From contig LT635948.1 of NCBI GenBank assembly GCA_900128565.1, forward strand, positions 1 to 34,898: a stretch of DNA of 34,898 bases, written 5' to 3'. The notes beneath the pieces are model-generated. The model was not told where the DNA came from. It was given only the letters and a program-made list of their open reading frames with translations, and made no database searches. Each line of letters starts with the position of its first letter. The stretch's first letter is position 1. Shown in pieces: positions 1 to 34,814 of the stretch. Position numbers and translations under genes: made by a program. The stretch comes from Stramenopiles sp. TOSAG23-6. Taxonomy: Eukaryota.

Positions 1-42
1 TTTTTAATTTTTTTTTCGCCCGGAATTTTGTCCCAAACCATT

Positions 43-84
<42 letters not shown>

Positions 85-99
85 TTTTTCACAATACAT
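1..99 (+). other. Non-canonical intron, 3' part only (ends TTTTTTCACAATACAT)
   Basis: Family 3' motif sits directly before G-TAT-CAA-ATT (MYQIT). A noisy copy of the internal motif is present (cgcccggaattttgtcccaaac). Confidence 0.7.
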
Positions 100-1281
100 G
101 TATCAAATTACATCTGATCATTTATGTGAATTATTAATTGATTTACATAAACGAGGTATTAAACTCACCATTCTTCTCTCTGCAACAATTTACGATGAAA
201 CGGATCATGTACGTTTTCATGATTTATTTCAATTTATAATTTATAATTTGTATTTTGTTTTCATACGAAATTTTGTACCTAACAAATATTTTTTCAAAAT
301 ATTTTTTTACTATACATGAAATGGCTACTTCTTGCTACGAGAAACTCGTTTCGGTTGGAATCGTTCTTCATTCTGCATGGCAATATGATCGGTATATGTA
401 CAACCATCAAAAGTTTTGGATTGTAGATGGAAAAGAACTCGTATATTATCTATAATGAATGTTTTACCTAATTGTTTTACTATGAAAATTTTGTACCTAA
501 CGAATTTTTTTATTATCCAAAAAAAAAAAAAAAAANATTTTTCACAATACTTGGATTAAGTACAGGAAATTGGTCTGATTCTGATTACCCAGGAGGCGCT
601 GCAACATTTACTCCACATTCTGATGATCCAAGTGCTTGGCGTCGATCGAACAGAGATTTTACATTGAAACTCACAGGAAATCCTCAAGTTATTAAAGTAT
701 ACCAAAATGTTATTACTGGGGATGTATGTTTTTCATCATGAATTTTTATTTTTTTTTTTCGTATGAAATTTTGTACCTAAGCAAAAAAACAAAAACAAAA
801 AAGATTTTTTTTTTTTAAATGTTTATTTTCATCATGAATGTTGAATTTATTTTTTTACGATGAAAACATTTTATAACAAACTCAATATTTGTGTAAACTA
901 TTTTTCAAAATACATCTGGCAAATGCAACGGTGTGGCAAAACAAAGCAGGCAGTGGATCATGTGCAACACTTGGTTGTAGTTATGTAACTGGAAGACGTG
1001 GTAAATGCCAATGTGATTCAAAATGTGTTCAATATAATAATTGTTGTTCTGATCATGCAAAGATATGTAATGCATCACCCTCCACAAAACCTCATCATAG
1101 ACCTCCAACGCCATCATCTGGAGGTAGTAATTCTTGTGCAACTTTGGGTTGTTATTATGTTCGTGGAAGAAAAGGTAAATGTACATGTGATCATCGATGT
1201 GAAAAAAAAGGAACATGTTGCTCTGATTATCAATCTGTGTGTTTATCCAACAACCCCGATGAATATTTTGCAATTGCATAA
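100..1281 (+). CDS. Phospholipase D (HKD) superfamily protein with two C-terminal somatomedin-B-like domains; 5'-partial; exons 100-208, 318-440, 553-723, 916-1281
   Basis: The spliced frame reads (M)YQIT...DETDH|EMATSC...HQKFWIVDGKEL|GLSTGNWS...RDF...VITGD|LANATVWQ, giving an HxKxxxxD...GN PLD motif. It then has two Cys-rich SC...C.CD..C.....CCSD....C repeats of SMB type. Confidence 0.8.
209..317 (+). other. Non-canonical intron GT...CAT, 109 nt, phase 0
   Basis: CAT|GTACGTTTTCAT...TACGAAATTTTGTACCTAAC...TTTTACTATACAT|GAA; joins ORF frames 98 and 255. Confidence 0.85.
441..552 (+). other. Non-canonical intron GT...CTT, 112 nt, phase 0
   Basis: CTC|GTATATT...TTTTGTACCTAAC...TTTTTCACAATACTT|GGA; restores HQKFWIVDGKELGLSTGNW. 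The nearest downstream AGs (559-560, 564-565) are out of frame. Confidence 0.85.
724..915 (+). other. Non-canonical intron GT...CAT, 192 nt, apparently two tandem family units
   Basis: GAT|GTATGTTTTTCATCATGAAT...TTTTTCAAAATACAT|CTG; contains an in-frame stop (739-741), so it must be removed. Confidence 0.8.
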
Positions 1282-1507
1282 AAGGATTTAAATTTATCAA
1301 AATGTGTAAAACAATTTTGAGAAAAAAAAATAAAAGTTTATTGAAAACGTTTCAATTATCTTTTTATAAACGTTTCCATTGTCTTCTTTAACTGTAGATA
1401 CAACATTTGTACTCAAGGGTAGTAGAACTTGTCCACTTACTGACTTCAGATGACATGTTTTGTCACGCAGTTGAGATTCAGTCACATACTCCACTGTGAC
1501 TTTGACC

Positions 1508-1555
1508 CACTGGTAACGCATCCATCAGCGCCACTTGATGGATGCGTTACCAGTG
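1508..1555. repeat. Perfect 20-bp inverted repeat with 8-nt loop spanning the F-box gene stop codon
   Basis: CACTGGTAACGCATCCATCA (1508-1527), loop gcgccact, TGATGGATGCGTTACCAGTG (1536-1555). Confidence 0.95.
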
Positions 1556-2586
1556 ATTGCGGACATCGCAAGTTTTCGATTAGCCTCCCAGTTCATATTG
1601 ACACCGTTGAGTTTGTCACCTAAACGGTTACCCAAGAGCTTGAGTTTGTCATAGTCCCAGTCATTGTCAATATCAAAGTCTGAGTTAGGCCGCTCACCGG
1701 CTTCCAAAAGTTTGACACTCAACACAAATTGCGCGACCTCTCCGACAGCTCCGACAACCTTACCAAAAGGATGGCGACCGGTGTCAGTAAATTTGTAATT
1801 GCAATGCAACATGAAAGTTGCATTTTGGCCGTTTGCAAGGTTGCATTTTTGGTACCAGTTTTCCATCGGCCTAGAGGAAGGATCACCAACACTTGAGAGG
1901 CAATCTATCTCTTGACCCCGATTCACAAAATGAGTGAACACGGCAATTTTGCGCCGCTGGGAATCAACACAGAACAGCCGAAACGACATAAAACCAATAG
2001 GCTGAGCACAGCAATCGCGTTCCGCAGGCCAATATCCCTGGACAGGACTAGCAACGTCAGTAAGTTCTAGGCTTCTAGCAAAAACACAAAGTTCGTTATT
2101 TATTTCATCTTCTAGAAATGTTTCCTCGTCATTATGTGGCTGTGCCCGAGCACGCACTCGGCACCCCTTGGCTAACACATGTTTGGTCCGGAAGATAGTT
2201 TTCTTCAATTCTTTGCCGTCAAAGTCACACTGTGACAGCTCCAAGAGAAAGCCGACGTTGTCTGGATTGATGCAAACTTGCGATGGCGAGAACTGGATGA
2301 CAGGCTCGACATAGCGACTTTTCGTGCATGCGGAAGCGTCCAGATCCAGTTGAAAGAGGCGCTGGTAGAGCAACCTTGGAGACAAATCGTCGCCCAGGAA
2401 AGGAGAGAGCCACATGGAGCGTGCGCTGTTGAGCAGCTGTGAAGCCGCCCAGACCTCGTCGAGCAGCTGCTTCTTTTCGCGTAGGGAAAGAAGGTAGCTG
2501 CACACAGATTCAGTGCAGAGGAGCTCGGGTGGACAGAGGAAGGAAATGGCCACGACAACGACATCTTCGGGGAGTAACAGAAGCAT
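1525..2586 (-). CDS. F-box-like protein, 353 aa, intronless, GC-rich
   Basis: Long ORF. N-terminal LLLLPEDVVVVAISFLCPPELLCTESVC fits the F-box pattern (LP.E....I..FL...EL.....VC). The rest is not recognised. Confidence 0.6.
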   Translation of the reverse strand: MLLLLPEDVVVVAISFLCPPELLCTESVCSYLLSLREKKQLLDEVWAASQLLNSARSMWLSPFLGDDLSPRLLYQRLFQLDLDASACTKSRYVEPVIQFSPSQVCINPDNVGFLLELSQCDFDGKELKKTIFRTKHVLAKGCRVRARAQPHNDEETFLEDEINNELCVFARSLELTDVASPVQGYWPAERDCCAQPIGFMSFRLFCVDSQRRKIAVFTHFVNRGQEIDCLSSVGDPSSRPMENWYQKCNLANGQNATFMLHCNYKFTDTGRHPFGKVVGAVGEVAQFVLSVKLLEAGERPNSDFDIDNDWDYDKLKLLGNRLGDKLNGVNMNWEANRKLAMSAITGNASIKWR

Positions 2587-2993
2587 GCTGCGTGAACATA
2601 TATTACTTCACTCTCTCCACTTACTAGTTTTTCCAAGAACTTTTGCTTCTTATCTATGCGTGGCCTATCGTGCGCGAGCGAAACAATTCATGAAAAAAAA
2701 ACACCGATCGGCGATTTTGGTCCAACCAATTTTGGTACGGAAATCCGTACTGGCATACAACTTGGTATGAAAAACAAAAATGTAAAAATAATGGATGAAA
2801 AATATCCCAATGAAAGATGCGCACAGCATCAAATCATTTGAAAAAAAATCAGAATGGTCAACACGAAAAAAAAACTGTGATTATTTTTTTATTATATCAA
2901 ATTACCTTTACTTACTTATTGAATAAATTTATTTTTCTAGTTAGTAAAAACCATTCAATTATTTTTCATTATTCTTTATACTATCAAAATGTA

Positions 2994-4778
2994 TTAGGTA
3001 GCAACACGAGTACCATATCTTCGTAAGGTTGGGTTGGTATGATAAATACACAAAGGTGGAATGCCTACTTTTCGCCAATCTAATTTTTCTGTATTCATCC
3101 ATTTGTTTTCAAAACCTAAGGAATCTTTAAGAACTTTGAGGTAACTTCCACCTCTAAATGTAACAACATCTCCTAGATCAGTTTGAATTTCTTCTAAAAA
3201 TAATTTTAATTTTGCACTCAATTTACAAACAATTTGGGCGAATCGTATAAATGTTGGTACACCAAATGTATCCAATGATGAAATGAAACAATTTTGCTCT
3301 TCCAATGTTTTCATTGTGTTTTCATCTATTTCAAGTCCATTTCTTTGCTCAGGATTTGACTGAATACTACGCATGTATTGTGAAAAAATATTTTACAAAA
3401 AAATTGTTAGGTACGGAATTTCGTACGAAAAAAAATATTTGAAATTTATCATGGAAACGTACATCATACGAAGAAGAGTTTCTCTAGATGAAATCATCTC
3501 GCTGGCAATACCCAAGTTTGTAACAGATTCGCCCAAATATGGCGCAAGTTCAGGATTTGAATACTTGACAAGGTATGTCAACTTTTGTATCATTGGAACT
3601 TCAAGTGTTTTCCATATTTGTTCAATTGCTGATTGATACGAAGGTTTAACTCGTGCTCGATTTGGAGTTTTCATTCCTGTTTTTGTTGTTGTTGACTTTT
3701 TTGATGAATTTTCTTGAGATGAATCATTTACTGTTTCATCATTATCTATCATTTGATCATTAAAATCTCTATTATGTGTACTATCTACTATTTCAAGTTT
3801 GGTATTAGATTTATTTCCAACTACGTTTTCATCCACCAACGTTTGAGTTTTATCTTTCCTTTTTTCAAAATTACTTCGCCATGGTTTTGCCTTTGCTATT
3901 CTTTCTTCTTCAGTTAATGTACTAAGAAATGTCCCAAGAGTTCGACTTTTGCGAACCTTTCTAAATACTAACGGTCGATGAGTGACAGCAGTTCCAAGAG
4001 CTCGAGTGCGTATGTGATTTGCAAAACCTGCAGTTTGTTGTTTCCATCGATTTTCTACTTCATCAGGAGGAGGCATAACTATTGGCTTTGAAGTAGGCCA
4101 TCGATGCCGTACAGTTTTTAAATGTTCATTTGCATTAAATGGTGCTGCATCATTATTACTGTCTTTCGAATCTATATTACTTTCATAATGCATCTCTTCT
4201 AATACATCTGCTTCAATAACATCAAGTCGAAGTTTTCTTAATTCAACTTGAAGTATTGTTTCACTTCTTTTTCGGTTTGCTGTAGTATGAAAAACACCTT
4301 TACGATCCATAGCTTTGTGTACTTCAGAGCATTTACGCCGTAAAGCTTCAACTATTAGTCCAATTCTTGAACGAACACGTTGAGCTGCATCTTCTCTCTG
4401 TGTATCATTCATACCTTTTACAAACTTATAAATAGAATGTTCACCAATAAGGGTTGGATTTGTCTCTGCTGGATCTCGTGAAGGTCCCATATTGGCCATG
4501 GCATCCTCAAGTTCTTCCAATACTTGCTTAACTACAGGAGGATCGATGATATTCTCTTTGATTTCTTTTTCAACGATTACTTCTTGTATTGGCTTTCCAG
4601 CTGCTTTCTGTCGTGCTTGGAGTACCTTTTTCTTCGGGTCTGTGACTGGTGTTAATGTAAAAGCGTTTCGAGTGTCTAGTAATCTTGTTTTCGGAACTTC
4701 GGCTTCGTACACTTTCTTATACCTTAACTCACTTGCAAGCGAACGCTTTTTTCTCCGTCGCGGTTGAGAGTAGGACAT
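2994..4778 (-). CDS. Uncharacterised protein with CCDC87-like C-terminus, about 564 aa; exons 4778-3463, 3372-2994
   Basis: Two ORFs are joined by a family intron (LLRMM|RSIQ). IEQIWKTLEVPMIQKLTYLVKYS and LGDVVTFRGGSYL resemble CCDC87-family motifs as I recall them (unverified). Confidence 0.6.
3373..3462 (-). other. Non-canonical intron GT...CAT, 90 nt, phase 2
   Basis: ATG AT|GTACGTTTCCAT...CGTACGAAATTCCGTACCTAAC...TTTTTTCACAATACAT|G CGT; contains an in-frame TAA. Confidence 0.85.
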
Positions 4779-5055
4779 GATTAAATATTTTTAAGAAATG
4801 TTTCACAATAGTCTCTACACAGTGAGCTACAAATTTTCAAGTCACTTTTACCTTTGTTATTAGGTGGTAAGTCCTGTTGGTCAAATTTCACTTGTAACGT
4901 TTTGTAACTGCTGCTTTGACCACGCTATATTTGCTACTCAAGTAAGCTTCTAGACTAGAGTCTCGTATATACGTATACTTATATAGACTAGATAACTAAA
5001 CCAAGTAGACTATTTTTGTGTTTATGTACTTTTAAAATACAATAGTAGTATTTCG

Positions 5056-6671
5056 ATGAATTTCAAATACAATGACCTCAAACGAGGTACAGGTGTAACA
5101 GTATCAATTCAAACTGACAAAAACTTGTTTGAATTCCTGGTTGAGCTCAATTTAGATTGTTATTTTGATAAGATAGTTGAGAACTTTAGTGTTTTCACTG
5201 TTGAAGAATTTCAAAATGCTTTACGTCGTCAAAACGATGATTCAACTTTGAAACATTTCATAAAGAAAAAAATTCACCGTATTAAAATGTTCAGGGCTAT
5301 AAAACAATACAGTCAAATAAACCCCATCAGACCAAACAAAACTAAATGCCATTTACAAGTGAATACAAACATAAACACAAAGACTAAAAATTTATTAAAG
5401 ATACCCAAAGTATCTAATTCCCAACACATCAAAATTGGCCAATTTGTCTATTGGTGTGAAAAACGATCAACAGAAATAATATGCCACATTGGCCGTGTAG
5501 AAAGTTTTCTTCCTGTATTCAATCCAACAGCTGCACGAAAAAATATACAAGTCATTTTGACATGTTTCAAAGAAAAAATAAAAGATTCTGGAATTATTTT
5601 CAAAACCGATCAAATTATAACAAAAGCTACAGATAAATTACATATAATAGATAAAAGTCTGACAAGCGTTTATAATAAAGAACTAAATTCTTGGAAATTA
5701 AAAAATAGGAATGTAGCTCTATTACTTCCCGGTATAAAACCTAAAAGTGTACCTCATGCTGATCTTAAAAAGAAAAAGGCAATGAATCATGATGTTTTTG
5801 TGTACTGTGTTTTAGTATTTGCTACAGAAAAGATTCATTTTGAAAATGTCCAAGAAAGTTTTTTATGTACACTATCAAAATATATATCAAGACCAATACA
5901 GATAAAATATATATCTTCATATGATCAAACAAATACTAAAATATCAAGTAGTCCAAAAGAGGCATTGACACGTGTCGATGTTATTATAACAATGACAGCT
6001 ATAGCAAATTGTGGATTACAATGTGTTGAAAAGAATAATGATACATGTACGTTTTCAAAACGTTTTCAAAATTGAATCTTTATATAAATTGTTTTTTGTG
6101 TCAAAATGTGTACCTAACAAAAAAATTGAATTTACCTTTTTTTTTTTTTTTTCACAATACATCAATTGCTCAAATGCTATATATTACACACCAACACATG
6201 TGTAACGGTGCTTCATTGAATGATACTCTTTTAAAGAAATGTAATTTAAATTTAATTAATATATCAGATTTAAGTGCATTAGCCATAGACTATCAACCTC
6301 AGAAATTGAAAAATCGTATAAATAATAAGAATAATAATGCAAATTTACTTGAAGAAGGAAATTTTGTAGCATTAAAAAATCCAAACTTTTCAGATCTATT
6401 AGAAAGCCCAGAAAAACCTTTATGGTTTGTTTTTCGTGTAATGCAAATTATTTCTAGTAAATTTGGTCAACTATATCATTTAAATATGTTTAAAGAAGTG
6501 CAACTTGGAAGTGGATACTTTATACCCACTAATGAATGGTTGGTACAAACATCCACTAATATGAGAAATATTGATTTGCATTTTGATTTGAAAACGAATT
6601 TATGGAAATGTAAATTACTTGTTCGTGATGAATTATTTAGAAATAGTATGGAATATAAAATTTCTTGTTGA
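5056..6671 (+). CDS. Hypothetical protein with N-terminal SAM-like domain, about 499 aa; exons 5056-6046, 6163-6671
   Basis: LFEFLVELNLDCYFDKI...IKKKIHRIKMFRAI is SAM-like. ORFs 5056 and 6045 join through a family intron (NNDT-S-IAQML). Confidence 0.65.
6047..6162 (+). other. Non-canonical intron GT...CAT, 116 nt, phase 1
   Basis: ACA T|GTACGTTTTCAA...TGTGTACCTAAC...TTTTTCACAATACAT|CA ATT GCT. Confidence 0.8.
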
Positions 6672-6849
6672 TTATTTGATTTTGTGAGATAATTTTTTTT
6701 TGTAGTATTGTAGTATTCGTATTCGAAAGAAAGAATTAAACAGCCAGTCAGTCGACAATACTGGCTCGACGAGTCGGACAAACTTTACTGGTCAACTTTT
6801 TTTGAGTGTGTATAATAAGAGTTTTAAAATAACTTTTGTTCTCCACGAA

Positions 6850-8341
6850 ATGATGAATCCTTTGTCAGCAATGATGACGTCTTTAAAGGCAGGTAATGCA
6901 GGCGAATCGCGCCATACACCCTTGATAGAAAGTGCAAAAATGTTTAAAGAGAAGGGCAATGCTTTATACAAAGAAAAAAAGTTTAAAGAAGCAAATGCTG
7001 CTTATTCGGAAGGAACACGGGTGCTGTCGGCATCTTTGGATCCACTTATGAATGGCCTTGCTGGCGAGGAATATGCACCAGTAGAAGCATATAAACTCAT
7101 GAAGATTATTGGAAGCAATCGTGCCGCTGCATTGATGGAAGTTTGTAAGCAGGATGATTCTAAAGTGTTGGTGTATGGTCTGGACATGCAAAAACAAAGG
7201 CTAAAGCTCTTGGAGATTGGAGCGAGCGTTACCCCAAGTGGAGTGAAATCTGCTTCAAAAGGATCAAAGCCTGATCCTAAGGATGTGGAAGATTGGACAG
7301 CAGTACGATGCAGACTCGAAATGTTGAACTTAGCAGTTCATCTTGTTGACGATGAAAATCGAAGAGTACCGCTGAGTCAAGCAGACCTTACAAAGTTGAA
7401 GCAACATAACAAGGATAAGGCAAAATATCCTAACCCACCAAAGCGAATAGATGATGGTCCAGTGTTTGCACGTATACGTAAAAAGTTGACAAAGAGAAGA
7501 AGTGTCATTGTAAAAATGATTGAAACTATACGAGAGAAATATTCCAAAGAAGTGAAAGAATACCCCCGAGAGCTTCTTTATCCCCCTGTTATAATTACGC
7601 CAATAGTTATTCATCCTTCTGCAAAAACCATTAAGCCTAGTAGAGTTTCACGTTCACCTTTAGATGAAATGATGTCTGATAAATTTTATTGTGGAAAACC
7701 GAAGAATAATTTCAGCACTATAAAAGCCATATACATTGACGATCATTCATTCAGTGAAATTGAAATACCTGCTTCAAGATGGATTGAAGTAATGAAAGCA
7801 CATGAGAAACCATCTGTACCTGAATGTTTAGGTGTAGAATTAGCCGTTCTCTTTGATAAACCATTTAGTGGTGATAACCAGTTTGGAACATATCTAATGA
7901 TTGATAAAATATCTGGCTTTGCTCCAATGAAGTATCAAATGAGACCAGGTGTACGTTTTCATTTCAATATTTTACCNAANTTTTTTTTNGNTACGAAATT
8001 TTGTACCTAACGATTTTTTTTTGAAATATTTTTTCACAATACGGCCTTGCACTGTTGTTCGAAGAAATGGTACAGACTATACTAATGAGGAACATATGCA
8101 ACTTCATAATTTCATATATAATCTCTTGGATGAGTATGCGGATGGCGCAGTAGACCCAGAGCGTGATCTTACACCTGCGATATGGAAATCTTTGGTTGAT
8201 AGTAATCAAAAATATAGGGAAGACAATGCTGAAGAAATTGCAGAAGAAGAAGCGTTTTTTAGACATTTAAATCCTCATTTATATCCACCAGATGAGGCAT
8301 CCATTGCTGCAGGCAAGAAATATTACACTCCGTCGATGTAA
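6850..8341 (+). CDS. TPR-domain protein, about 465 aa; exons 6850-7950, 8045-8341
   Basis: AKMFKEKGNALYKEKKFKEANAAYSEG...SNRAAA is a co-chaperone-type TPR. First ATG is at 6850. The spliced junction reads GFAPMKYQMRPG|PCTVVRRNG. Confidence 0.75.
7951..8044 (+). other. Non-canonical intron GT...CGG, 94 nt, phase 0
   Basis: GGT|GTACGTTTTCAT...TACGAAATTTTGTACCTAAC...TTTTTCACAATACGG|CCT. Confidence 0.8.
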
Positions 8342-8446
8342 GATATTTTTATATACAACTTCAAACATATAAAAGTTATAATTCTTTTATTCTTTATTGA
8401 TGTTTTTTTTAGACATTTTCAAATTTTCTTCATCGTCCAAAAAATT

Positions 8447-9349
8447 TTAGTGTTGTTTATTAGACTCTGCTGAAGTTTTAAAAAGATTTTCTAATTTTTC
8501 ATTTCGTTTTAACCATGGATGATTGGGGGATACACTGTTTAGTTGCTTTATATAACCTTGAATAACAGAATCACCCTTTCCATTCCACTGCGCACAAGTA
8601 ATAATATTTACAAGTGTATCGCCATCTTTAGCGTTCATCCCAAGAGCTTCTTGGAAGGCTTGGTCTGCAGCTTCATAATTACTTAAATGAATATTTGCAA
8701 CGCCAAGACCATTTAAGAGAAGTACGGTTGGTCCATATTTATCAATAAGTTCCTGGTAAATGTATGACGCTTCCTGGTATTTAGCTCCACCTGTAATCAA
8801 GTATAACCATGACATGCAAAGTTGAGTAAGAGTACTGTCGTCGTCGACTTGTTGCAGAACGAGAAGTTGTTTCTGTGCAAGATCAATTCTTGACATTGCA
8901 ATGTGTATTTGTAAAGTAAGTGACATTTGCTCCATATCTGAATCATCACGGAGAGTAGCAAGGGCTAATGGTAACTCTCCCTCGCGGTAAAAAACAGTCG
9001 CAGCGATAGTTTGAGCCATTGACATTGCTTTTCCTGGTGCGACATCTGCTTTCAAAAGTTCTTTCAACGATTCCACGACTTTAGCGCGAGATGTATCACT
9101 AGAATCAGATTCGTATTCTGCTAAAAGTTTTACGGCAGCAATTGGAGGTTCGATTTCGTCTCCGTCCAACTCTGTTTCATCGAGAACATAACCTGGGTTT
9201 CCCATTCCAATGTAACACCTGTAGACATACGCATCACGCTCAGTCACAACTTCTTCTGAAGATGGGCGAATTCCACCAGCTTCTCGTATACCTAACTGAA
9301 AATTTCCTAACCAGAAATAGTTCTTTAGCATAAATAACTCATCTGCCAT
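8447..9349 (-). CDS. COPE: Coatomer subunit epsilon (COPI), 300 aa, intronless
   Basis: MADELFMLKNYFWLGNFQ, ERDAYVYRCYI, RIDLAQKQL...DDDSTLTQL..SW, KYQEASYIYQEL, LLLNG, PNHPW are hallmark epsilon-COP/Sec28 motifs. Start ATG is at 9349. Confidence 0.93.
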   Translation of the reverse strand: MADELFMLKNYFWLGNFQLGIREAGGIRPSSEEVVTERDAYVYRCYIGMGNPGYVLDETELDGDEIEPPIAAVKLLAEYESDSSDTSRAKVVESLKELLKADVAPGKAMSMAQTIAATVFYREGELPLALATLRDDSDMEQMSLTLQIHIAMSRIDLAQKQLLVLQQVDDDSTLTQLCMSWLYLITGGAKYQEASYIYQELIDKYGPTVLLLNGLGVANIHLSNYEAADQAFQEALGMNAKDGDTLVNIITCAQWNGKGDSVIQGYIKQLNSVSPNHPWLKRNEKLENLFKTSAESNKQH

Positions 9350-9467
9350 GGTGTGAATCAAAATTACGGAGAAGAATTTTTCAAGTCTCGTTTTTTTGTC
9401 TCGAGACGAGGTGAAAAATAAAATCGTCAAAACGAATAAATCTCAAATGAAATTCTCGCAATTGAAT

Positions 9468-9540
9468 GCCACGTGGCGCGATATTGTAAAATTGCAAGTG
9501 ACACGAGGTAGGACCTGGTTGTTACCCTACATGCGCATGC
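9468..9540. promoter_or_regulatory. Candidate cis-elements in the divergent COPE/Sel1 promoter: GCCACGTGGC and CATGCGCATG palindromes
   Basis: Perfect 10-bp palindromes at 9468-9477 (G/E-box type) and 9530-9539 in a 254-nt head-to-head spacer. Confidence 0.35.
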
Positions 9541-9603
9541 TATAAATTATAAACACTGCTGCTGCTAAATTGGTATACAAAAGCCGCAAATCGAGGCTAC
9601 ATC

Positions 9604-11010
9604 ATGGAAGCAGAGTATGAACTTGGTTTACGTTATTATACGGGTCATGGTGTCACTCAATGTGATAAAACTGCTGCTGAATTGTTTAGAAAAGCTGCGA
9701 ATCAAGGCAATAGCAGTGCACAAAATCATCTTGGTTATTGCTATGAACATGGTCATGGTGTTGCTGAAGATAAAGAAGAAGCTTTCAAGTGGTATTCTAA
9801 ATCTGCAAATGCGAAGAAAAGTGAAGCGTCTGGATTATTCCTGTTTAAAGATCTGAAAAGTAAAAATGGTTCTTCCATTGGTACGACGCTTACAAGTCTT
9901 TCTCGCGCGACTCCTCGTCGCATGATACCTAATCCAACAAATGCACTTTTCAAAATTGGAAGTGTTACCCGTATTCGCAGTTTCTACCAACGAGTCCTTA
10001 TTTTTTTCATAACATATAACCCTGATAAAGTTATTAATGTTCCTAGAATTGTCGAAAAATATGCAGGTTGTGAGAAAGAACTATTTGAGGAACTCTCTGA
10101 GCGATATCCTGAGTCTTTACCAGAAGTATTAAATCCCATACCTAATTCCTTACGTAATATAAATGAAGGACAATATAATCTTGGTTATTGCTATGCTAAT
10201 GGTGTTGGTGTTGCTGAAGATAAAGAAAAAGCTTTCAAGTGGTATACTAAATCTGCTCATTCCCGTTGTAGTGATGCACAAAACAGTCTTGGTTACTGCT
10301 ATGAACATGGTCATGTTGTTGATGAAGATAAAGAAGAAGCTTTCAAGTGGTATTCTAAATCTGCAAATGCAAGTAATAGTGCAGGACAAAATAATCTTGG
10401 TTATTGCTATGATAATGGTGTTGGTGTTGCTGAAGATAAAGAAGAAGCTTTCAAGTGGTATTCTAAATCTGCTGATTCCGGTGATAGTGAAGGTCAAAAT
10501 AATCTTGGTAACTGCTATTATTACGGTGAAGGTGTTGCCGAAGACAAAAAAGAAGCTTTCAAGTGGTATACTCAATCTGCTGCTGCTGGTAATAGTGAAG
10601 GTCAAATTAATCTTGGTGACTGCTATAATAATGGTTATGGTGTTGAACAAGATTATAAAGAAGCTTTCAACTGGTATGCTAAATGTGCAAATGCAGGTAA
10701 TATGATTGGACAGTGTTATGTTGGTGATTGCTATTATAATGGTTATGGTGTCACTAAAAATTATAAAAGAGGAGCAAAGTGGATCAAGAAAGCAAAAAAG
10801 CAGATAACGGATTCAACAGATGAGGGAATAAAAGACTTGATAATGAAATATGACAACTCAAAATGTGTGAATTGTGGTAAAGTTGACAAAATTACTAAAT
10901 TATTCTTTTGTACTGGGTGTAAATGTGTGTGGTATTGTTCAAAGAAGTGTCAAAAAGCACATTGGAGTATACACAAAAAACCGTGTCGCAACTCAAAAAG
11001 TGTAAATTGA
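9604..11010 (+). CDS. Sel1-like repeat protein with C-terminal MYND zinc finger, 468 aa
   Basis: 36-aa repeats AQNxLGYCYxxGxGVAEDKEEAFKWYSKSA. C-terminal CVNC...CTGCKCVWYCSKKCQKAHWSIHKKPC is a zf-MYND. Confidence 0.92.
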   Translation: MEAEYELGLRYYTGHGVTQCDKTAAELFRKAANQGNSSAQNHLGYCYEHGHGVAEDKEEAFKWYSKSANAKKSEASGLFLFKDLKSKNGSSIGTTLTSLSRATPRRMIPNPTNALFKIGSVTRIRSFYQRVLIFFITYNPDKVINVPRIVEKYAGCEKELFEELSERYPESLPEVLNPIPNSLRNINEGQYNLGYCYANGVGVAEDKEKAFKWYTKSAHSRCSDAQNSLGYCYEHGHVVDEDKEEAFKWYSKSANASNSAGQNNLGYCYDNGVGVAEDKEEAFKWYSKSADSGDSEGQNNLGNCYYYGEGVAEDKKEAFKWYTQSAAAGNSEGQINLGDCYNNGYGVEQDYKEAFNWYAKCANAGNMIGQCYVGDCYYNGYGVTKNYKRGAKWIKKAKKQITDSTDEGIKDLIMKYDNSKCVNCGKVDKITKLFFCTGCKCVWYCSKKCQKAHWSIHKKPCRNSKSVN

Positions 11011-11232
11011 TGAAAATAAATTATTAAATTGGTTGAAAATAATATGATGAATTGAATTTGTATGAAAAAAATAGAATATTGTCAAATTTACTTAATTAGT
11101 GAGCGCAAACCACTTTTGATGTAGAGGCTTTTATTGGTTTATTTTCGAAATTAGAAACTGATCAAAGTAATAAACGAGATCATCAAAATTTTAAAAATTA
11201 TTTTTTTTATATTTTTTTTTATATTTTTTTCG

Positions 11233-12132
11233 TCATTTTCGATGTAATTTAAAAACTTTAATTTTGTCTATGGAAAAATCAGGATGAACATTTTCTCCAG
11301 AAATATTCCATCTGAAATATTTCCGTAAAGCATTAAATAGAATCTCATCTGTTTCATTTGATCTAGTTTGATGGGCTAATAAAATTACCGCGTCTGGATT
11401 AATATCGGTCAATTGTATTAATACATTAGTCAAAGGCTTCACCAAATCTGCAAGCCATACTACATCTGCACCAAGGATAATATCATATACTTTTAAATCA
11501 TTTGGAGTGAACCAATCTAAAGCCTCTACATGAATATTAGCCATTTGAGAAGCACTAGAATTACGTTTTAAAGCTTCACTGGCATTACGGTTTAGTGTTT
11601 CAAGACAATATGGAAGATCAGTCAAAGTAACAGAAGCAGCGCCTAATAAAGCAGCAGCAATACCTGAAAGACCTGTTCCAGCACCTAATTCTAAAACGTT
11701 CTTTCCAGTGATAGAGTTACAATTGGATGAGTTGATGGGACAGACAGAAGACTCGGGTGACCACACATGTTCTAAATATTTTGCGAGAACAATACTACCA
11801 TCCCACACAAATCGACCAGTGTCACCGTCTTGTTGCTTTTTAGTGTCTCTAATGACTGGTGCAGGATGTACTATTATTGGTTTACCCCGTACCGAAAACT
11901 CTCCTGCAGTAAAGTTAAAATTAAACTCTTGTCCCTTTAATAAAAGTTGTTTGCCACTTGCGACTATAGGTGTTGCAGTACGAATTAAACTCCACTCTTG
12001 AGTGTCTGGTTGCCATTCTCGTACACTACCATCAGAAGACGTATGTATACGTTTCTTACCAACCTGACTGTGGCTTATATTTGACGTATAAAATAAATAT
12101 AAAGTATATGAGAATAATAGCCTCGAATACAT
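11233..12132 (-). CDS. METTL21/Methyltransf_16-type protein lysine methyltransferase, about 299 aa (start uncertain)
   Basis: TGRFVWDGSIVLAKYL, VLELGAGTGLSGI, VTLTDL, LDW, DIILGADVVW. First in-frame ATG is at 12132. Confidence 0.85.
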   Translation of the reverse strand: MYSRLLFSYTLYLFYTSNISHSQVGKKRIHTSSDGSVREWQPDTQEWSLIRTATPIVASGKQLLLKGQEFNFNFTAGEFSVRGKPIIVHPAPVIRDTKKQQDGDTGRFVWDGSIVLAKYLEHVWSPESSVCPINSSNCNSITGKNVLELGAGTGLSGIAAALLGAASVTLTDLPYCLETLNRNASEALKRNSSASQMANIHVEALDWFTPNDLKVYDIILGADVVWLADLVKPLTNVLIQLTDINPDAVILLAHQTRSNETDEILFNALRKYFRWNISGENVHPDFSIDKIKVFKLHRK

Positions 12133-12294
12133 AAACAACCCTTTAAAAATGCAGACGAAAGTATACAAAATGAATAAATAGGTCCTATATTGACTTGTGA
12201 AAAAGACACTTCGAGATAATATATTTCTGTCAAACGCAAACTCAAACTGAAAAAAAAAAAACACGAAATAAAAAATTCAAATCAGCTTTTTTGA

Positions 12295-12338
12295 CCAATC
12301 AAATCAGTCATCGCTCTTTTCGCGCGGAACATGCGCAT
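12295..12338. promoter_or_regulatory. Candidate cis-elements in a divergent promoter: CCAAT, TTTTCGCGCG, CATGCGCAT
   Basis: A cluster of CCAAT-box, E2F-like and TGCGCA motifs between the head-to-head methyltransferase and carrier genes. Confidence 0.3.
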
Positions 12339-12513
12339 CAAGATGATCAAACTTCTTGAATATTGAAGGAGTAAAGTAAAAGGGACATAAATTTAGGTCC
12401 GCAATTGTAAGCCACATTCACCAGTACTTTTCAATAGCAAGCAGAATGAGACTATTTTAGTTTTTTAATAATAGTATTAGAAATAGTAGAGGCTTTACTC
12501 TTTAGAATACATA

Positions 12514-13591
12514 ATGGTTGCCTCTCCACAACCTGGACCTGCAGAAGCAACACTTTCCCGTACAATTCAAGGTTTCTTCAAAGTTGAGTCTGAAGTTAAA
12601 GGAAAAGTCAATGAATTTTCTCCGCCTCCAATGATGCGTTTTCTAATGGCTGGTGCTGGAGCGGGAGCTATAACAAAAACATGTGTTGCGCCATTAGAAC
12701 GATTAAAAATCCTATTTCAGGTCCAGGCAATGCAAAGTGGTGCTCCAAAGTATCAGGGAATACCACATGCAACGAGAACAATTTTTAAGGAGGAAGGTGT
12801 TATTGGATTTTGGCGTGGTAATGGTGCAAATGTGTTGCGTGTAATACCAGTATATGCTCTAAAGTTCGGTTTCAATGATACATTTAAAGGTTTAGTCCGA
12901 AAGGATAAACAAACAAAACTTAATTTTGTTCAATTAGTTACTGCTGGTTCCATGGCAGGACTTTTTCAGACTTGTATAACATATCCTCTAGAATTAGTTC
13001 GCACTCGTCTTACTCTCGGTGTTGGTTTAGGTCTACGATATAATGGTATTGTTGATTGTTTGATGAAGACATTACGTGGTGAAGGTATTACGGGACTGTA
13101 CAAAGGTCTTTCGCCTACTATATTATCTGGTGTACCTTATGTTGGTTTACAAATGTCATTTTATGAATTAAATACTCGTTTTGCAAGGGAACATTTTAGT
13201 CTTGAATCTGGAACAATGACTAAGCTAATATGTGGTGCTTCAGCGGGTGTTGCTGCGCAAACGTTGACGTATGCAGGTGATACAATACGTAGACGAATGC
13301 AAACAGATGGAGCATGTGGAAAACCTCGAACGTATGGTGGAATGTTTGTACGTTTTCATCATGAATTTTCAATTTTTTTTTTAGTACGAAATTTTGTACC
13401 TAACGATTTTTTTTTACTACAAAAATATTTTTTCACAAGTACATGATTGCTTTAGACAAATATTGAAAAAAGAAGGTGCAATTGGTTTTTACAAAGGTGT
13501 TCATGTTAATTGTATTAGAGCTATCCCTGGTGCTGCAATCCAATTTGTTGCATATGATGCATTGAAGTCTCTTTTTGGAGCAACCAAATAA
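12514..13591 (+). CDS. Mitochondrial carrier (SLC25 family; CoA/adenine-nucleotide carrier-like), about 326 aa; exons 12514-13347, 13445-13591
   Basis: Three carrier repeats: APLERLKILFQ, YPLELVRTRL, YAGDTIRRRMQ; also GFWRGNGANVLR. Splicing gives YGGMF|DCFRQILKKEG..GFYKG. Confidence 0.92.
13348..13444 (+). other. Non-canonical intron GT...CAT, 97 nt, phase 0
   Basis: TTT|GTACGTTTTCAT...GTACGAAATTTTGTACCTAAC...TTTTTCACAAGTACAT|GAT TGC. Using the AG at 13438-13439 with this donor causes a frameshift and early stop. Confidence 0.85.
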
Positions 13592-13820
13592 TAGAAAGCT
13601 ATACTAAGTAAATACTATATAGTAATAATAATAATAATGGAAACAAAATATAATATTTTGAAAAATCAATTTACATAGAAATATTCCGTATTAAAAGTAT
13701 ATTTTGAATGGGTACAAATAAAACATCCATACCAAAACATTTAATAATTTAAAACGTATATTTTTAATTTATGCTGATATCAATTTGGCTATTTATTTTT
13801 AAATGCTTTTCATTACAATT

Positions 13821-15731
13821 TTATTCTGATGTTAATTCGGACATTAATTTTGGAATAGTTTTATCAATAGCATCTTCCACAGCTTTCAATTGATCTGGTC
13901 GAAGAGATCGAAAAGAAGCTCTCCAATCATCAATATTTGAAACATGTTTTCGAAATTCATCAAGATTTGGAAAATCTCCTGTAGGTATTCTATATTTTTT
14001 TGAGACTTCAAAAAAGACATTTGCCATATCATTTACTAAATCTTCTCTTGCTTTTACTTTTCCAAAAAATAATGGCATTTGTGACTTTAAATAAGATATT
14101 AATAATATATGAACTTTAACTTCACGCCATCGTTTTGCAAGGTACGAAACTTTTCTAATTAGATTATTTCTTGGTAAATCATATAATTCATCTAATAAAG
14201 TTGCTTTATCTCGTTTGAATAATAATTTATTCGTAATATTACCTTGTAAAGGTTTATTCCAAAACGAACCTAAATATATCCGTGTAACTTCTGGGGTTTT
14301 CAATACTTTACCTAAAGCCCAGAGTAAAGCACCGTATACACGCAATAATTCACATCCAGATATTTGATCAGCTTTATTAAGTACAACTCGAATTTTGTTT
14401 GCATTTGATGAAGTAGCTAGGATTGCACCTTCAAACTCATCACTAATATCTAATTTATTTGCATCAAAAAACAAAAGTAATCGATCCACGCGTGAAGCAA
14501 ACCATTTAACAACTGCATTGAAATCATATGATCGACCTATAGTTTGTTTTTCACCAGATAAAATTCCAGGTGAATCAATGTATACAAGAAAAATATGTTT
14601 TCAGTTTGAAATTTGTTAGCACAAAATAATTTCGAAATCGAATAATTAGTTGAACAATATACATTTAAAAAATATATATTTCAACAATATAATTGAAATT
14701 CAAAATGAGTGATAAATACATACATCAATGTATATCTATCTAAAATACTATTTCCACTAATAATAGGTATTTCTATTCCTTCAAACCTTTCTAAAAAACT
14801 ACTTCCAAATCTAATCAAACTTGCAAAAGGTCGATCTGGTTGAACTGTAACTGTATGACCTGGTACAGACCTTGCTTCATTACAACCATGACCACCACGC
14901 ATAATAGCTGACCATTTGTCTGTTGTTGGTTCCGGACCAATACGCATGTATTGTGAAAAAATATTTTTTTTTAACAAAAAAGATTTGTTAGGTACAAAAT
15001 ATTTTTTATGAAAAAAAATAAATTTGAATTTTAATTTTGAAAATGTACATATTTGGATAATCTCCAACAATTGACCTGATAAAAGAGGTTTTACCTACAG
15101 AATATTGACCAAGTAAAAGTACCATAGGTTTTGCATCAAAATCAGCAGAACGTAATAGGGGCTGTACCATCCTATCGTAGAGGTAGATTTCCTCCATTGG
15201 CTTTATATGATTAAAATATAATTTTTTGAGTTGGTTACTTAGTAAACGAAATTCTTCATCAGACTTTGAAGTTTTAATATCCAAATGAGTATCAGAAGGA
15301 TTGTCCGCGATTCCTGTAAATATGAAAGTATCTGATGGCTGTAAAGAATCAGGAGAATTATTGACTAACTTTTGTAATTCAACACTTTTCTGGATTTGTT
15401 TTGTTTTTTCTTCTAATTGCTGATCCTTTTGTTGTAGACTAGAACGTAACTGAGATATAATAGCATTTTGCTCCTCAATTTTCTTCTCTGCGTTTATACG
15501 AGAAGAATTATCTTTATGACGCAAATCATTTATCATTGAAATCTTATGGAGATACTCAGCACGTTGACGTTGAAGACTTCTACGCATTCCAAGTCTGATC
15601 TTTAGAGTATCTGGCACACCTCGACCAAGAAGAACATCACAGACTTCGTTGGCAAACACAGAAGGATTTTCAGCTTCATCAACTTCTAAATTGTCATCAA
15701 CTTTTAAATTGTCACTGTTTGACATGTTCAT
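13821..15731 (-). CDS. EHD/RME-1 family dynamin-like ATPase, about 553 aa; exons 15731-15049, 14945-14724, 14577-13821
   Basis: DFDAKPMVLLLGQYSVGKTSFI, M|RIGPEPTTD, LI|DSPGILSGEKQ, GRSYDF, LFFDANKLDISDEF, IRVVLNKAD, RVYGALLWALGKV..TPEV.RIYLGSFW, GDFP. Confidence 0.93.
14578..14723 (-). other. Non-canonical intron GT...CAT, 146 nt, phase 2 (divergent family member)
   Basis: TTG AT|GTATGTATTT...TTTTGTGCTAAC...TTTTTCTTGTATACAT|T GAT TCA CCT; restores LIDSPG. There is no AG until after the codons for DSPGILSGEKQT. Confidence 0.9.
14946..15048 (-). other. Non-canonical intron GT...CAT, 103 nt, phase 2
   Basis: AAT AT|GTACATTTTC...TTTTGTACCTAAC...TTTTTCACAATACAT|G CGT ATT; restores DYPNMRIGPEPTTD. 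There is no AG in the intron or before the end of the PTT codons. Confidence 0.9.
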
Positions 15732-17449: not shown

Positions 17450-18757
17450 TTGAAATGGGTAAGAAGTCAAAATCCACCTTGTCCATGGGATGAAGAAACG
17501 TGTAGTTTTGCAGCTTATGATGGTCAATTAGAAGTATTGAAATGGGTGAGAAGTCAAAATCCACCTTGTCCTTGGGATGAAAATACATGTAGAAATGCAG
17601 CTACAAAGGGTCACTTAAAAGTATTGAAATGGTTAAGAAGTCAAAATCCACCTTGTCCTTGGGATGAATGGACATGTCGTGTAGCAGCTGAGTATGGTGA
17701 ATTAGAAGTATTAAAATGGGTAAGAAGTCAAAATCCACCTTGTCCTTGGGATGAAAATACGTGCCGTGATGCAGCTTATGGTGGTCACTTAGAAGCATTA
17801 CAATGGGTAAGAAGTCAAAATCCACCTTGTCCTTGGAATGAAGGCACATGTCATTTAGCAGCTGCATTATGTCACTTAGCAGTATTGAAATGGGTAAGAA
17901 GTCAAAATCCACCTTGTCCATGGGATGAAGAAACGTGTCGTAAAGCAGCTGAGTATGGCCACTTAAAAGTATTGAAATGGGTTAGAAGTCAAAATCCACC
18001 TTGTCCATGGGATGAAAGTACATGTTATGAAGCATCTGAAAATGGCCACTTAGAAGTATTGAAATGGGTAAGAAGTCAAAATCCACCTTGTCCGTGGAAT
18101 AAATATACTTGTGAAAATGCAGCTGCAAGTGGTCACTTGGAAGTATTGAAATGGTTAAGAAGCCAAAATCCACCTTGTCCATGGGATGAAGAAACGTGTC
18201 GTGTTGCAGCTGAAAATGGTCGATTAAAAGTATTGAAATGGTTAAGAAGCCAAAATCCACCTTGTCCATGGTATGAAGGTACATGTAATAGAGCAGCTTT
18301 AAATGGTCATTTGGAAGTATTGAAATGGCTAAGAAGTCAAAATCCTCCTTGTCCATGGAGTGAAGGTACATGTCGTGTAGCAGCTTATGGTCACTTAAAA
18401 ATACTGAAATGGTTAAGAAGTCAAAATCCACCTTGCTCATGGGATGAAGAAACGTGTGAGGCTGCAGCTGAAGGTGGCCACTTAGAAATATTGAAATGGG
18501 TAAGAAGTCAAAATCCACCTTGTCCATGGGATGAAGAAACGTGTAGTTTTGCAGCTTATGATGGTCAATTAGAAGTATTGAAATGGGTGAGAAGTCAAAA
18601 TCCACCTTGTCCTTGGGATGAAAATACGTGTCGTATTGCAGCTGAAAAAGGTAAGATTGAAGTATTGAAATGGCTAATAGATGTGAAAGCCCCAGGTTAT
18701 GAGAGGTATGAGAATTATAACTTCTCAATTGATTTTTCAAATGATTCAAGTTGGTAA
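17450..18757 (+). CDS. Mirror copy: ankyrin-like repeat protein (5'-truncated)
   Basis: Exact reverse complement of 16142-17449. Confidence 0.8.
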   Translation: MKWVRSQNPPCPWDEETCSFAAYDGQLEVLKWVRSQNPPCPWDENTCRNAATKGHLKVLKWLRSQNPPCPWDEWTCRVAAEYGELEVLKWVRSQNPPCPWDENTCRDAAYGGHLEALQWVRSQNPPCPWNEGTCHLAAALCHLAVLKWVRSQNPPCPWDEETCRKAAEYGHLKVLKWVRSQNPPCPWDESTCYEASENGHLEVLKWVRSQNPPCPWNKYTCENAAASGHLEVLKWLRSQNPPCPWDEETCRVAAENGRLKVLKWLRSQNPPCPWYEGTCNRAALNGHLEVLKWLRSQNPPCPWSEGTCRVAAYGHLKILKWLRSQNPPCSWDEETCEAAAEGGHLEILKWVRSQNPPCPWDEETCSFAAYDGQLEVLKWVRSQNPPCPWDENTCRIAAEKGKIEVLKWLIDVKAPGYERYENYNFSIDFSNDSSW

Positions 18758-18856
18758 TGAATTGTAGTTTATATTTTAGGATTAAAACTTTTGAGTTTTA
18801 AAAATTTCTTAAAATTATATTAATTTTTTTTTATAAATAGTTCATTTAAAAAAACA

Positions 18857-18943
18857 TCATTTAAAATGAAAATCAAAAAGTTATATTTTGGAATCCTCAG
18901 CCACAGAAGCAAGTTGAGAGCCATCAGGTTTCCATGCCAAATC
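18857..18943 (-). pseudogene. Mirror copy: WD40 fragment
   Basis: Exact reverse complement of 15956-16042. Confidence 0.55.
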
Positions 18944-19167
18944 CTATATTGTAAAAAGCTGTATTATTTTGTGTATTATAAAATGAAAATGTTTTGGCAA
19001 AAACTTTTTTAAACTAAACTCAAAAAAAGTGGAAAAAAGTGGAAAAAAAAAAGTCTCAAAATGAAGTCAAAAACGAAAATCATCAAAATATCTGATTGGC
19101 CAATTATTTGGAATCGTTCCAATACGCTGTGTTATTCGAATCAATTCAATGTAGCATTATTTCAAAA

Positions 19168-21078
19168 ATGAACATGTCAAACAGTGACAATTTAAAAGTT
19201 GATGACAATTTAGAAGTTGATGAAGCTGAAAATCCTTCTGTGTTTGCCAACGAAGTCTGTGATGTTCTTCTTGGTCGAGGTGTGCCAGATACTCTAAAGA
19301 TCAGACTTGGAATGCGTAGAAGTCTTCAACGTCAACGTGCTGAGTATCTCCATAAGATTTCAATGATAAATGATTTGCGTCATAAAGATAATTCTTCTCG
19401 TATAAACGCAGAGAAGAAAATTGAGGAGCAAAATGCTATTATATCTCAGTTACGTTCTAGTCTACAACAAAAGGATCAGCAATTAGAAGAAAAAACAAAA
19501 CAAATCCAGAAAAGTGTTGAATTACAAAAGTTAGTCAATAATTCTCCTGATTCTTTACAGCCATCAGATACTTTCATATTTACAGGAATCGCGGACAATC
19601 CTTCTGATACTCATTTGGATATTAAAACTTCAAAGTCTGATGAAGAATTTCGTTTACTAAGTAACCAACTCAAAAAATTATATTTTAATCATATAAAGCC
19701 AATGGAGGAAATCTACCTCTACGATAGGATGGTACAGCCCCTATTACGTTCTGCTGATTTTGATGCAAAACCTATGGTACTTTTACTTGGTCAATATTCT
19801 GTAGGTAAAACCTCTTTTATCAGGTCAATTGTTGGAGATTATCCAAATATGTACATTTTCAAAATTAAAATTCAAATTTATTTTTTTTCATAAAAAATAT
19901 TTTGTACCTAACAAATCTTTTTTGTTAAAAAAAAATATTTTTTCACAATACATGCGTATTGGTCCGGAACCAACAACAGACAAATGGTCAGCTATTATGC
20001 GTGGTGGTCATGGTTGTAATGAAGCAAGGTCTGTACCAGGTCATACAGTTACAGTTCAACCAGATCGACCTTTTGCAAGTTTGATTAGATTTGGAAGTAG
20101 TTTTTTAGAAAGGTTTGAAGGAATAGAAATACCTATTATTAGTGGAAATAGTATTTTAGATAGATATACATTGATGTATGTATTTATCACTCATTTTGAA
20201 TTTCAATTATATTGTTGAAATATATATTTTTTAAATGTATATTGTTCAACTAATTATTCGATTTCGAAATTATTTTGTGCTAACAAATTTCAAACTGAAA
20301 ACATATTTTTCTTGTATACATTGATTCACCTGGAATTTTATCTGGTGAAAAACAAACTATAGGTCGATCATATGATTTCAATGCAGTTGTTAAATGGTTT
20401 GCTTCACGCGTGGATCGATTACTTTTGTTTTTTGATGCAAATAAATTAGATATTAGTGATGAGTTTGAAGGTGCAATCCTAGCTACTTCATCAAATGCAA
20501 ACAAAATTCGAGTTGTACTTAATAAAGCTGATCAAATATCTGGATGTGAATTATTGCGTGTATACGGTGCTTTACTCTGGGCTTTAGGTAAAGTATTGAA
20601 AACCCCAGAAGTTACACGGATATATTTAGGTTCGTTTTGGAATAAACCTTTACAAGGTAATATTACGAATAAATTATTATTCAAACGAGATAAAGCAACT
20701 TTATTAGATGAATTATATGATTTACCAAGAAATAATCTAATTAGAAAAGTTTCGTACCTTGCAAAACGATGGCGTGAAGTTAAAGTTCATATATTATTAA
20801 TATCTTATTTAAAGTCACAAATGCCATTATTTTTTGGAAAAGTAAAAGCAAGAGAAGATTTAGTAAATGATATGGCAAATGTCTTTTTTGAAGTCTCAAA
20901 AAAATATAGAATACCTACAGGAGATTTTCCAAATCTTGATGAATTTCGAAAACATGTTTCAAATATTGATGATTGGAGAGCTTCTTTTCGATCTCTTCGA
21001 CCAGATCAATTGAAAGCTGTGGAAGATGCTATTGATAAAACTATTCCAAAATTAATGTCCGAATTAACATCAGAATAA
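19168..21078 (+). CDS. Mirror copy: EHD-family ATPase; introns 19851-19953 and 20176-20321
   Basis: Exact reverse complement of 13821-15731. Confidence 0.9.
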
Positions 21079-34799: not shown

Positions 34800-34814
34800 A
34801 TGTATTGTGAAAAA

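Follow-up and report, generated by a model that had tools for sequence, protein, structure and literature searches.

Contig LT635948.1 of Stramenopiles sp. TOSAG23-6 (GCA_900128565.1) raises a question about the nature of its introns: where do introns come from that resemble each other over most of their length, interrupt unrelated genes and finish without AG, and how are they removed? The window analysed here, that is, the whole stretch of 34,898 nt, equals its reverse complement at every position (0 mismatches) and holds 17,449 nt of unique sequence. Intron counts refer to the left arm; the duplicates in 17,450–34,898 were excluded, as mirrored introns are not independent. The unique arm carries nine complete introns (I1–I9) and one, I0, that is truncated by the window start. 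Nine of the ten (I0–I8, in six genes) are copies of one short intron-forming repeat, with a similarity that goes beyond splice signals. The reading given most weight is a short, high-copy introner-like family in nuclear genes, borne by a transposon, with an AT duplication that supplies a non-AG 3' site. Its chance of being right is put at about even.

Such a family bears on the origin of introns and on how far the GT-AG rule bends. Informative lineages are few: Micromonas, Aureococcus, dinoflagellates, Amoebophrya and Fritillaria. The family would add a clean case: the 5' site and the branch box are those of a textbook intron, AG is absent throughout, and a 2-nt repeat loses one copy with the intron, apparently in thousands of copies in a compact genome. 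On a wider and more doubtful reading, set out below, it would be the first AT-duplicating introner, and a protist spliceosome, or another machine, would follow a new rule for the choice of the 3' site. The host is present at useful depth in seawater metagenomes, which makes tests for empty sites and for correlated flanks feasible.

Sequence family and intron structure

Pairwise, I0–I8 share exact strings of 11–31 nt. For comparison, 100-mers drawn at random from non-intron sequence of this arm have 9 nt on average, and at most 14 nt, in common with any intron. Exact shared strings replaced global pairwise identity as the measure, which was dropped because it reaches 74% even in shuffled AT-rich controls, with 81% in the observed data. 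The alignment yields a nearly full-length consensus: GTACGTTTTCAT(C)ATGAATTT, a T run, CGTACGAAATTTTGTACCTAAC, a T/A run of variable length and AAATATTTTTTCACAATAC. Shared blocks total about 70 of about 95 nt and include spacer segments such as CATCATGAATTT.

A first-pass annotation of this DNA had described the introns as one repeat family, alike well beyond splice signals, and had quoted three shared strings. All three were found in the unique arm: GTACGTTTTCAT at 209, 7951 and 13348, TACGAAATTTTGTACCTAAC at 264, 7992 and 13385, and ATATTTTTTCACAATAC at 81 and 8026 on the forward and at 14964 and 3391 on the reverse strand. GTACCTAAC occurs seven times per arm, every time in an intron. The pattern GTAYRTTTYCA has 12 matches in the palindromic window (six per arm) against 0.32 expected from shuffles. 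TTTYAMAATAC has 16 matches against 0.57 expected; two of these represent one non-intron site per arm, at 5030. This site (5030–5040) is a lone string like the 3' block, TTTTAAAATAC, after ATGTAC; the next gene has its start codon 16 nt downstream. The string could be a remnant or the 3' end of a 5'-UTR (untranslated region) intron of the same type.

Membership of a single family thus stands for I0–I8 and falls short for I9. The longest string that I9 shares with any family member has at most 12 nt. It retains a GTATGT start, a GTATAC+AT terminus and, 36 nt before the end, a GTGCTAAC box, and so has the termini and the CTAAC box alone in common with the others.

I3 consists of two tandem units, as seen in local alignments of each of its halves to I7 and I4. 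The first unit covers the 5' end up to the CTAA box; the second starts with the TTTTCATCATGAAT block, continues to the 3' end and has a decayed branch box. Composite contigs with one unit directly after another recur in the metagenomes. The tandem structure of I3 is predicted by duplication or nested insertion, not by constraint on splice signals.

This evidence bears on a non-mobile explanation, which takes the introns as old, ordinary introns of a compact genome with long and strict splice signals, as in Ostreococcus or yeasts. The best-conserved blocks are indeed the 5' site, the branch region and the 3' tract, and these are the features that I9 keeps. However, strict signals do not account for spacer segments within about 70 shared nt, for exact strings of up to 31 nt or for the second, partly decayed set of all blocks, in order, within I3. 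They also leave unexplained the recurring composite contigs and the thousands of metagenomic contigs that match at 90% or more. Strict-signal introns are considered improbable.

The ends of the introns are uniform. The core begins with GTAY in all nine complete introns and ends with RTAC in all ten, as first annotated. The 5' site is GTAYGT or GTAYAT (9/9). A branch-type CTAAC box (TTTTGTACCTAAC) lies 32–50 nt before the intron end and is followed by a T-rich tract. The terminus of the element reads ...CACAATAC, with no AG. None of the ten introns has AG at the 3' end; all finish with TAC plus 2 nt, and seven of the nine complete cores have no AG internally either. Lengths of 90–116 nt had been claimed for most introns; the cores have 88–114 nt in seven of nine, and 144 and 190 nt in the other two. 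The flanking pairs were also exactly as annotated, AT/AT in six of nine and TC/TT (I2), GT/GG (I6) and TT/AT (I7) in the rest. Each of the three unequal pairs is one change short of a perfect 2-nt repeat. The downstream pair is AT in eight of ten introns; outside introns, the dinucleotide AT has a frequency of 0.096.

Table 1. Introns of the unique arm, with the mirror arm of the window. Flanks are the pairs upstream/downstream of the core.
Feature	Position	Strand	Core	Flanks	Gene	Remarks
I0	1..99	+	to 97	AT at 98-99 (downstream)	PLD-like/somatomedin-B gene	3' part of a family intron; ATATTTTTTCACAATAC at 81; from alignment
I1	209..317	+	209-315, 107 nt	AT/AT	PLD-like gene	from alignment and frame
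I2	441..552	+	441-550, 110 nt	TC/TT	PLD-like gene	one N
I3	724..915	+	724-913, 190 nt	AT/AT		two tandem family units
I4	3373..3462	-	3375-3462, 88 nt	AT/AT	gene without family match	
I5	6047..6162	+	6047-6160, 114 nt	AT/AT	gene without family match	
I6	7951..8044	+	7951-8042, 92 nt	GT/GG	gene without family match	four N
I7	13348..13444	+	13348-13442, 95 nt	TT/AT	mitochondrial carrier gene	
I8	14946..15048	-	14948-15048, 101 nt	AT/AT	EHD-type GTPase gene	
I9	14578..14723	-	14580-14723, 144 nt	AT/AT	EHD-type GTPase gene	
Mirror arm	17450..34898	.				exact reverse complement of 1-17449; repeats all ten introns

Excision of the introns

Removal of the core plus 2 nt yields uninterrupted joined reading frames for all nine complete introns. 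The EHD-type GTPase gene was compared with the solved EHD4. I8 splits an ATG codon of this gene, and its junction agrees exactly with the EHD4 chain 7sox_A: exon 1 ends at residue 67, the split ATG is residue 68 and exon 2 continues from residue 69. At the I9 junction, exon 3 begins at residue 135 of the EHD4 chain; the HMMER local alignment of exon 2 ends six residues early, and this junction is consistent, not exact. Judged by the usual spacing of the motif, I2 presumably splits the HKD motif of the PLD protein; the PLDc match stops at the exon edge, and the joined translation continues through the motif. A register bounded by TA or TAC (core minus 4) was rejected: it also keeps the frame, but its two additional codons contradict the I8 junction. 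The earlier statement that core and one dinucleotide leave together was thereby borne out.

The exact cuts are unreadable from the DNA because the flanks repeat. Cut models are separable only at I2, I6 and I7, and only on the RNA level. With the 5' cut directly before GT, the 3' cut falls after TAC+NN, and the last three intron bases are CAT in eight of ten introns. With both cuts shifted 2 nt upstream, six of nine introns read AT...AC and look like U12-type AT-AC introns. U12-type introns carry a 5' box of the minor type, and their branch box sits about 10–20 nt before the 3' end. The introns of the window instead have GTAYGTTTTCAT as the 5' box after AT, and their CTAAC box is 32–50 nt from the end. 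A comparison with U2-type GT-AG introns finds the 5' consensus, the branch motif and the pyrimidine tract, and lacks the 3' AG in ten of ten. The spliceosome most likely performs the removal, since the U2-type signals survive in I9, which is otherwise unrelated in sequence.

ATGTAY at one end is complementary to RTACAT at the other. In seven of nine introns the two are predicted to form a closing helix, with a probability of 0.56–0.99; in I2 and I6 the probability is at most 0.17. In an alternative reading, removal from RNA would bypass the ordinary spliceosomal choice of the 3' site and be guided by this helix, which would set two cuts staggered by 2 bp. Introns with pairing ends are known in euglenids, hemistasiid diplonemids and Amoebophrya, and are described as non-canonical (PMC7789003, PMC12621601, PMC11282704). 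Helix guidance would agree with the predicted helix itself, with the lack of AG at all 3' ends and inside seven of nine cores, and with a border that is variable under either cut placement. It is at odds with I2 and I6, which need the same removal of core plus 2 nt with hardly any predicted helix. GTAYGT, the CTAAC box at 32–50 nt and the T tract are signals of the U2-type spliceosome, also kept in I9. Helix-guided, non-standard excision is quite improbable.

In the introner-like element, a conventional-looking GTAYGT 5' splice site is followed by the TTTTGTACCTAAC branch-type box and a T-rich tract, the succession that a spliceosomal intron should have. In the mechanism proposed for it, the unit removed would be the element together with one copy of the 2-nt direct repeat, mostly AT, that brackets it. 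The repeat would stem from a 2-bp target-site duplication at a site like C-AT-G. The major spliceosome would cut directly before GTAYGT and then after the downstream copy of the repeat. The last element base and the duplicate, CAT, would thus serve as a non-AG 3' site. The short helix of ATGTAY and RTACAT may keep both ends together.

Occurrence in seawater metagenomes

Nine runs of seawater metagenomes contain part of the region. Contigs of four runs were mapped onto 7992–16000, a segment dictated by the N's in I2 and I6, which took these two introns out of the RNA comparison. The summed depths in the bins of I6, I7 and I8 were 12,004, 28,316 and 386 in the DNA run X3 (3326 contigs) and 3,787, 10,192 and 67 in the DNA run X4 (1310 contigs). 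For the RNA libraries, they were 1,221, 5,520 and 12 in X8 (592 contigs) and 1,095, 5,765 and 10 in X9 (649 contigs). The I7 bin is the deepest of all bins. Other bins of X3 mostly have depths of about 1–13, with exceptions of 55–393 over the Sel1-repeat gene. The family has a high copy number; as an order of magnitude, the depth points to thousands of copies, where summed contig depth is not equal to copy number and other organisms may contribute.

Thousands of contigs match intron segments at 90% or more and diverge at the ends of the core. These other copies reveal the borders of the element. At 8042, the match ends for groups of 35, 16 and 5 contigs, and all three consensus sequences continue with AT. 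At 13347, it ends for 19, 16 and 7 contigs, and all three consensus sequences end with ACA before T13347. At the 14945 border, the match of other copies extends through AT. These borders give a family-wide context of about (A)CAT-GTACG ... ATAC-AT(G/A), with hyphens at the ends of the core.

The elements are present in DNA. Four contigs of the DNA runs cross exon–intron borders at exon-like depth: 8014–9485, 13393–13735 and 14946–15381 of X3 and 12868–13375 of X4. They place the elements in bulk DNA, which counts against an elimination from DNA of the type known for internal eliminated sequences (IES) of ciliates, a reading in which the elements would be flanked by a 2-bp pointer and would not be introns. 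The elements share with IES the short length, the AT-richness, the location within coding sequence, a 2-nt direct repeat that is retained once and a short inverted terminus. In addition to the low, exon-like depth of the border-crossing contigs, no intron-skipping joint was among the 15 listed of 92. The genes use the standard code, end with TAA or TGA and have no in-frame stops, and the TA-bounded register would add two codons that misfit the I8 junction. DNA elimination is extremely improbable.

The RNA libraries were of limited use for splicing. Their contigs cover the intergenic stretch 12089–12487 at exon depth, one contig (14693–14845) continues from exon 2 of the EHD gene over 31 nt of I9 without any difference, and the ratio of intron to exon depth is alike in RNA and DNA runs. 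The RNA libraries therefore behave as DNA for this host. Splicing is neither demonstrated nor excluded by these runs, and parts of the region without cover are uninformative.

Searches in other collections yielded no relatives. The pattern from the branch box to the 3' end has no match in viral contigs, nor have two other family patterns in the same contigs. Its seven matches in metagenome contigs and three in Genome Taxonomy Database (GTDB) contigs were rejected as single chance matches in unrelated, mostly GC-richer DNA with no second family motif. A profile of the peptides from intron read-through, meant to give the upstream codons throughout the genome, had no hit at E ≤ 0.001 among 1.84 billion proteins; the coatomer protein of the host, and probably its whole proteome, are missing from the protein collection.

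Origin and mobility

The origin of the 2-nt repeat is central to the question of how the family spread. The first-pass annotation interpreted it as an AT-preferring target-site duplication, partly decayed, of a MITE (miniature inverted-repeat transposable element) with the inverted terminus GTAY/RTAC. An AT duplication is plausible, though unproven, because ISL2EU transposons make one. The flanks are equal in six of nine introns and one change off in the other three. Their consensus, C-AT-G, is palindromic, as would suit a symmetric integration.

Several observations weigh against the transposon-borne, AT-duplicating element. AT is self-complementary, and AT/AT may equally well extend the inverted terminus to ATGTAY/RTACAT. 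A fixed intron end in combination with an exon preference explains AT/AT equally well. Decay of a duplication concerns three introns only; pairs that are one change off arise by chance in about 4 of 10 random pairs, and for I6 a decay from AT/AT is unlikely because its core is near the consensus, yet three changes would be needed. At 4 nt, or 6 if AT is counted, the inverted terminus is short by the standards of MITEs, and the ends mismatch beyond. Pfam detected no transposase family in the window, which agrees with the earlier annotation, and no long autonomous element with the same ends was seen there. All ten copies of the window are genic and in sense orientation; none lies in the 2682 intergenic nt of the arm, which is weak evidence since only 15% of the arm is intergenic. 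The 15 joints listed of 92 include neither an empty site nor an allele that lacks an intron, and contigs of both DNA runs carry I6, I7 and I8. No joint spans I7, I8 or I9 among the same 15 of 92, RNA libraries included. The uninterrupted passage of an RNA-library contig into I9 and the limits of contig depth as a measure of copies, both given above, belong to these points as well.

Some of them favour a spread of the same family via RNA, by reverse splicing, reverse transcription and recombination. No duplication would be involved. The introns would be GT...AT introns and the upstream AT a protosplice context in the exon. The genic and sense-only placement, the inverted terminus of no more than 4–6 nt and the lack of a transposase are in line with this, as is I7, which keeps the consensus 3' end TAC+AT and deviates (TT) only on the exon side. 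Selection would also produce a sense-only, genic placement, and ten of ten copies outside intergenic DNA are expected by chance in about 1 in 5 cases at 15% intergenic sequence. The flanks seen in other copies, (A)CAT on the 5' and AT(G/A) on the 3' side of the core, are palindromic and better explained by a symmetric integration of DNA. In I2 and I6, the supposed intron end varies (TT, GG), with one base still matching the upstream pair. Spread via RNA is rated as rather unlikely.

The reading as an introner-like element with a duplicated AT could be extended to the whole genome. Nearly the whole intron set of the host, in the order of thousands, might be one AT-duplicating mobile family. AG would then play no part in the choice of the 3' cut, which would have a fixed position 2 nt beyond ...TAC and face the 5' cut across the end helix. 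The enzyme behind it might be PHIS/ISL2EU-like and occur outside animals. This extension is doubtful and put forward tentatively.

Comparison with known introns and transposons

Among the systems nearest to the family are the introners of Micromonas pusilla, Aureococcus and dinoflagellates. These also consist of thousands of near-identical short introns in unrelated genes; direct repeats mark the border, one copy is intronic and completes the splice site, and the element has no transposase inside (PMC11282704, PMC12130899). The window has many copies, similar over their full length, as introns in unrelated genes (nine of ten introns, six genes). Micromonas duplications supply AG 3' sites (PMC11282704). 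In these introner families, the duplicate gives AG or the element gives GT/GC, and duplicates have at least 3 bp (PMC11282704, PMC12130899). In contrast, all ten introns of the window lack AG, and the repeat has 2 nt.

The MITE-derived introns of Fritillaria borealis have similar non-AG 3' ends (AC, AT), which are used genome-wide (PMC13326754, PMC11282704). Duplications supply the 3' sites there as well; the duplicate is TAC and the last three bases are YAY (PMC13326754, PMC11282704). The introns of the window have TAC at this place, or CAT with a cut 2 nt further, against YAY in Fritillaria (PMC13326754). A copy of the repeat likewise precedes the intron in the exon, and removal in Fritillaria is thought to be by a U2-type spliceosome (PMC13326754, PMC11282704). 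Differences are that Fritillaria is an animal and that its introns mostly start with AG, have diverse ends and carry a TAC repeat (PMC13326754, PMC11282704). The stramenopile introns have a strong, conventional GTAYGT, a clear CTAAC box, an AT repeat and one dominant family.

Introns of Amoebophrya A25/A120, also a marine protist, have direct repeats over an ambiguous border and inverted repeats that pair (PMC7789003). Their inverted repeats have 8–20 nt and their direct repeats 3–5 nt, in contrast to inverted repeats of 4–6 nt in the window (PMC7789003). The end dinucleotides of Amoebophrya are highly diverse and no U1 small nuclear RNA (snRNA) was found in it; the 5' site in the window looks U1-compatible (PMC7789003). 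Introns of euglenids and hemistasiid diplonemids share the direct repeats at the border and the base-paired ends (PMC12621601, PMC6221363). They have no conserved GT, branch motif or pyrimidine tract, whereas all three are strong in the window (PMC12621601, PMC6221363).

Among transposons, the ISL2EU group of the PHIS superfamily is the one known cut-and-paste group with a 2-bp 5'-AT-3' duplication in a palindromic target (PMC4482050). Its target is A-AT-T, its inverted repeats have 6–259 bp and start with GG, it encodes a DDE transposase, and it is described from animals only (PMC4482050). The AT repeat is present in six of nine introns of the window, which differ by flanks like C-AT-G, termini that start with GT and the lack of a detected transposase. 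The likeness to MITEs is also partial. A MITE is expected to have inverted repeats of about 10 bp or more, against 4 nt (6 with AT) here. Its duplication has a fixed length; the 2-nt repeat is perfect in six of nine introns and one change off in three, and the AT is possibly part of the element. Copies in both orientations, non-genic copies and an autonomous partner are also expected, none of which was found in the window. The family is unlike its nearest systems in four respects: a uniform end without AG next to a strong conventional 5' site and branch box, a 2-nt repeat, a very short inverted terminus and an apparent share of nearly all introns here. Searches of the literature found no description of it.

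Genome context

The arm is gene-dense eukaryotic DNA, with 14,767 of 17,449 nt in genes. Pfam identified a PLD-motif protein with two somatomedin-B domains, coatomer epsilon, a Sel1-repeat/MYND protein, a lysine methyltransferase, a mitochondrial carrier, an EHD-type dynamin-like GTPase and an ankyrin array; four more genes of the arm have no Pfam family. A homologue search in 5.8 billion proteins found the closest relative of the coatomer epsilon at 51% identity. Rfam detected no snRNA in the window, only hairpin artefacts at the centre of the palindrome: microRNA matches at 17384–17515.

The palindrome has no spacer. Its centre, 17449/17450, cuts an ankyrin-repeat gene. A perfect palindrome of such size is most simply explained by amplification or by a fold-back chimera of the assembly. 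The ankyrin array next to the centre (16142–17449, reverse strand) consists of near-identical units of 33 residues with the motif ...LKW(V/L)RSQNPPCPWDE.... The repeats are highly similar in their DNA, which indicates that the array is young or homogenised.

Two regions are conspicuous by their depth. Over the Sel1-repeat gene (9594–10928), bins are 5–40 times deeper than those of single-copy neighbours in all four runs, and nearly all contigs carry a fixed G>T at 9664. This suggests a large family of Sel1 paralogues in the same or related organisms. At 11196–11462, the 3' end of the methyltransferase gene and the sequence downstream, summed depths are 86–99 in the two RNA libraries against 3.7–8.5 in the two DNA runs. 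In no other bin is RNA clearly above DNA; the cause is either strong expression or a match to a transcribed repeat.

An intron-less open reading frame of 360 amino acids (1525–2607, reverse strand) has no Pfam match and, by eye, an F-box-like N-terminus. It lies in the GC-richest stretch of the arm; the 1-kb windows of 1001–3000 have 40–43% GC against 28–33% in the flanking sequence. The gene may have been acquired recently. A near-perfect hairpin of about 24 bp (1500–1560) is located directly beyond its stop codon.

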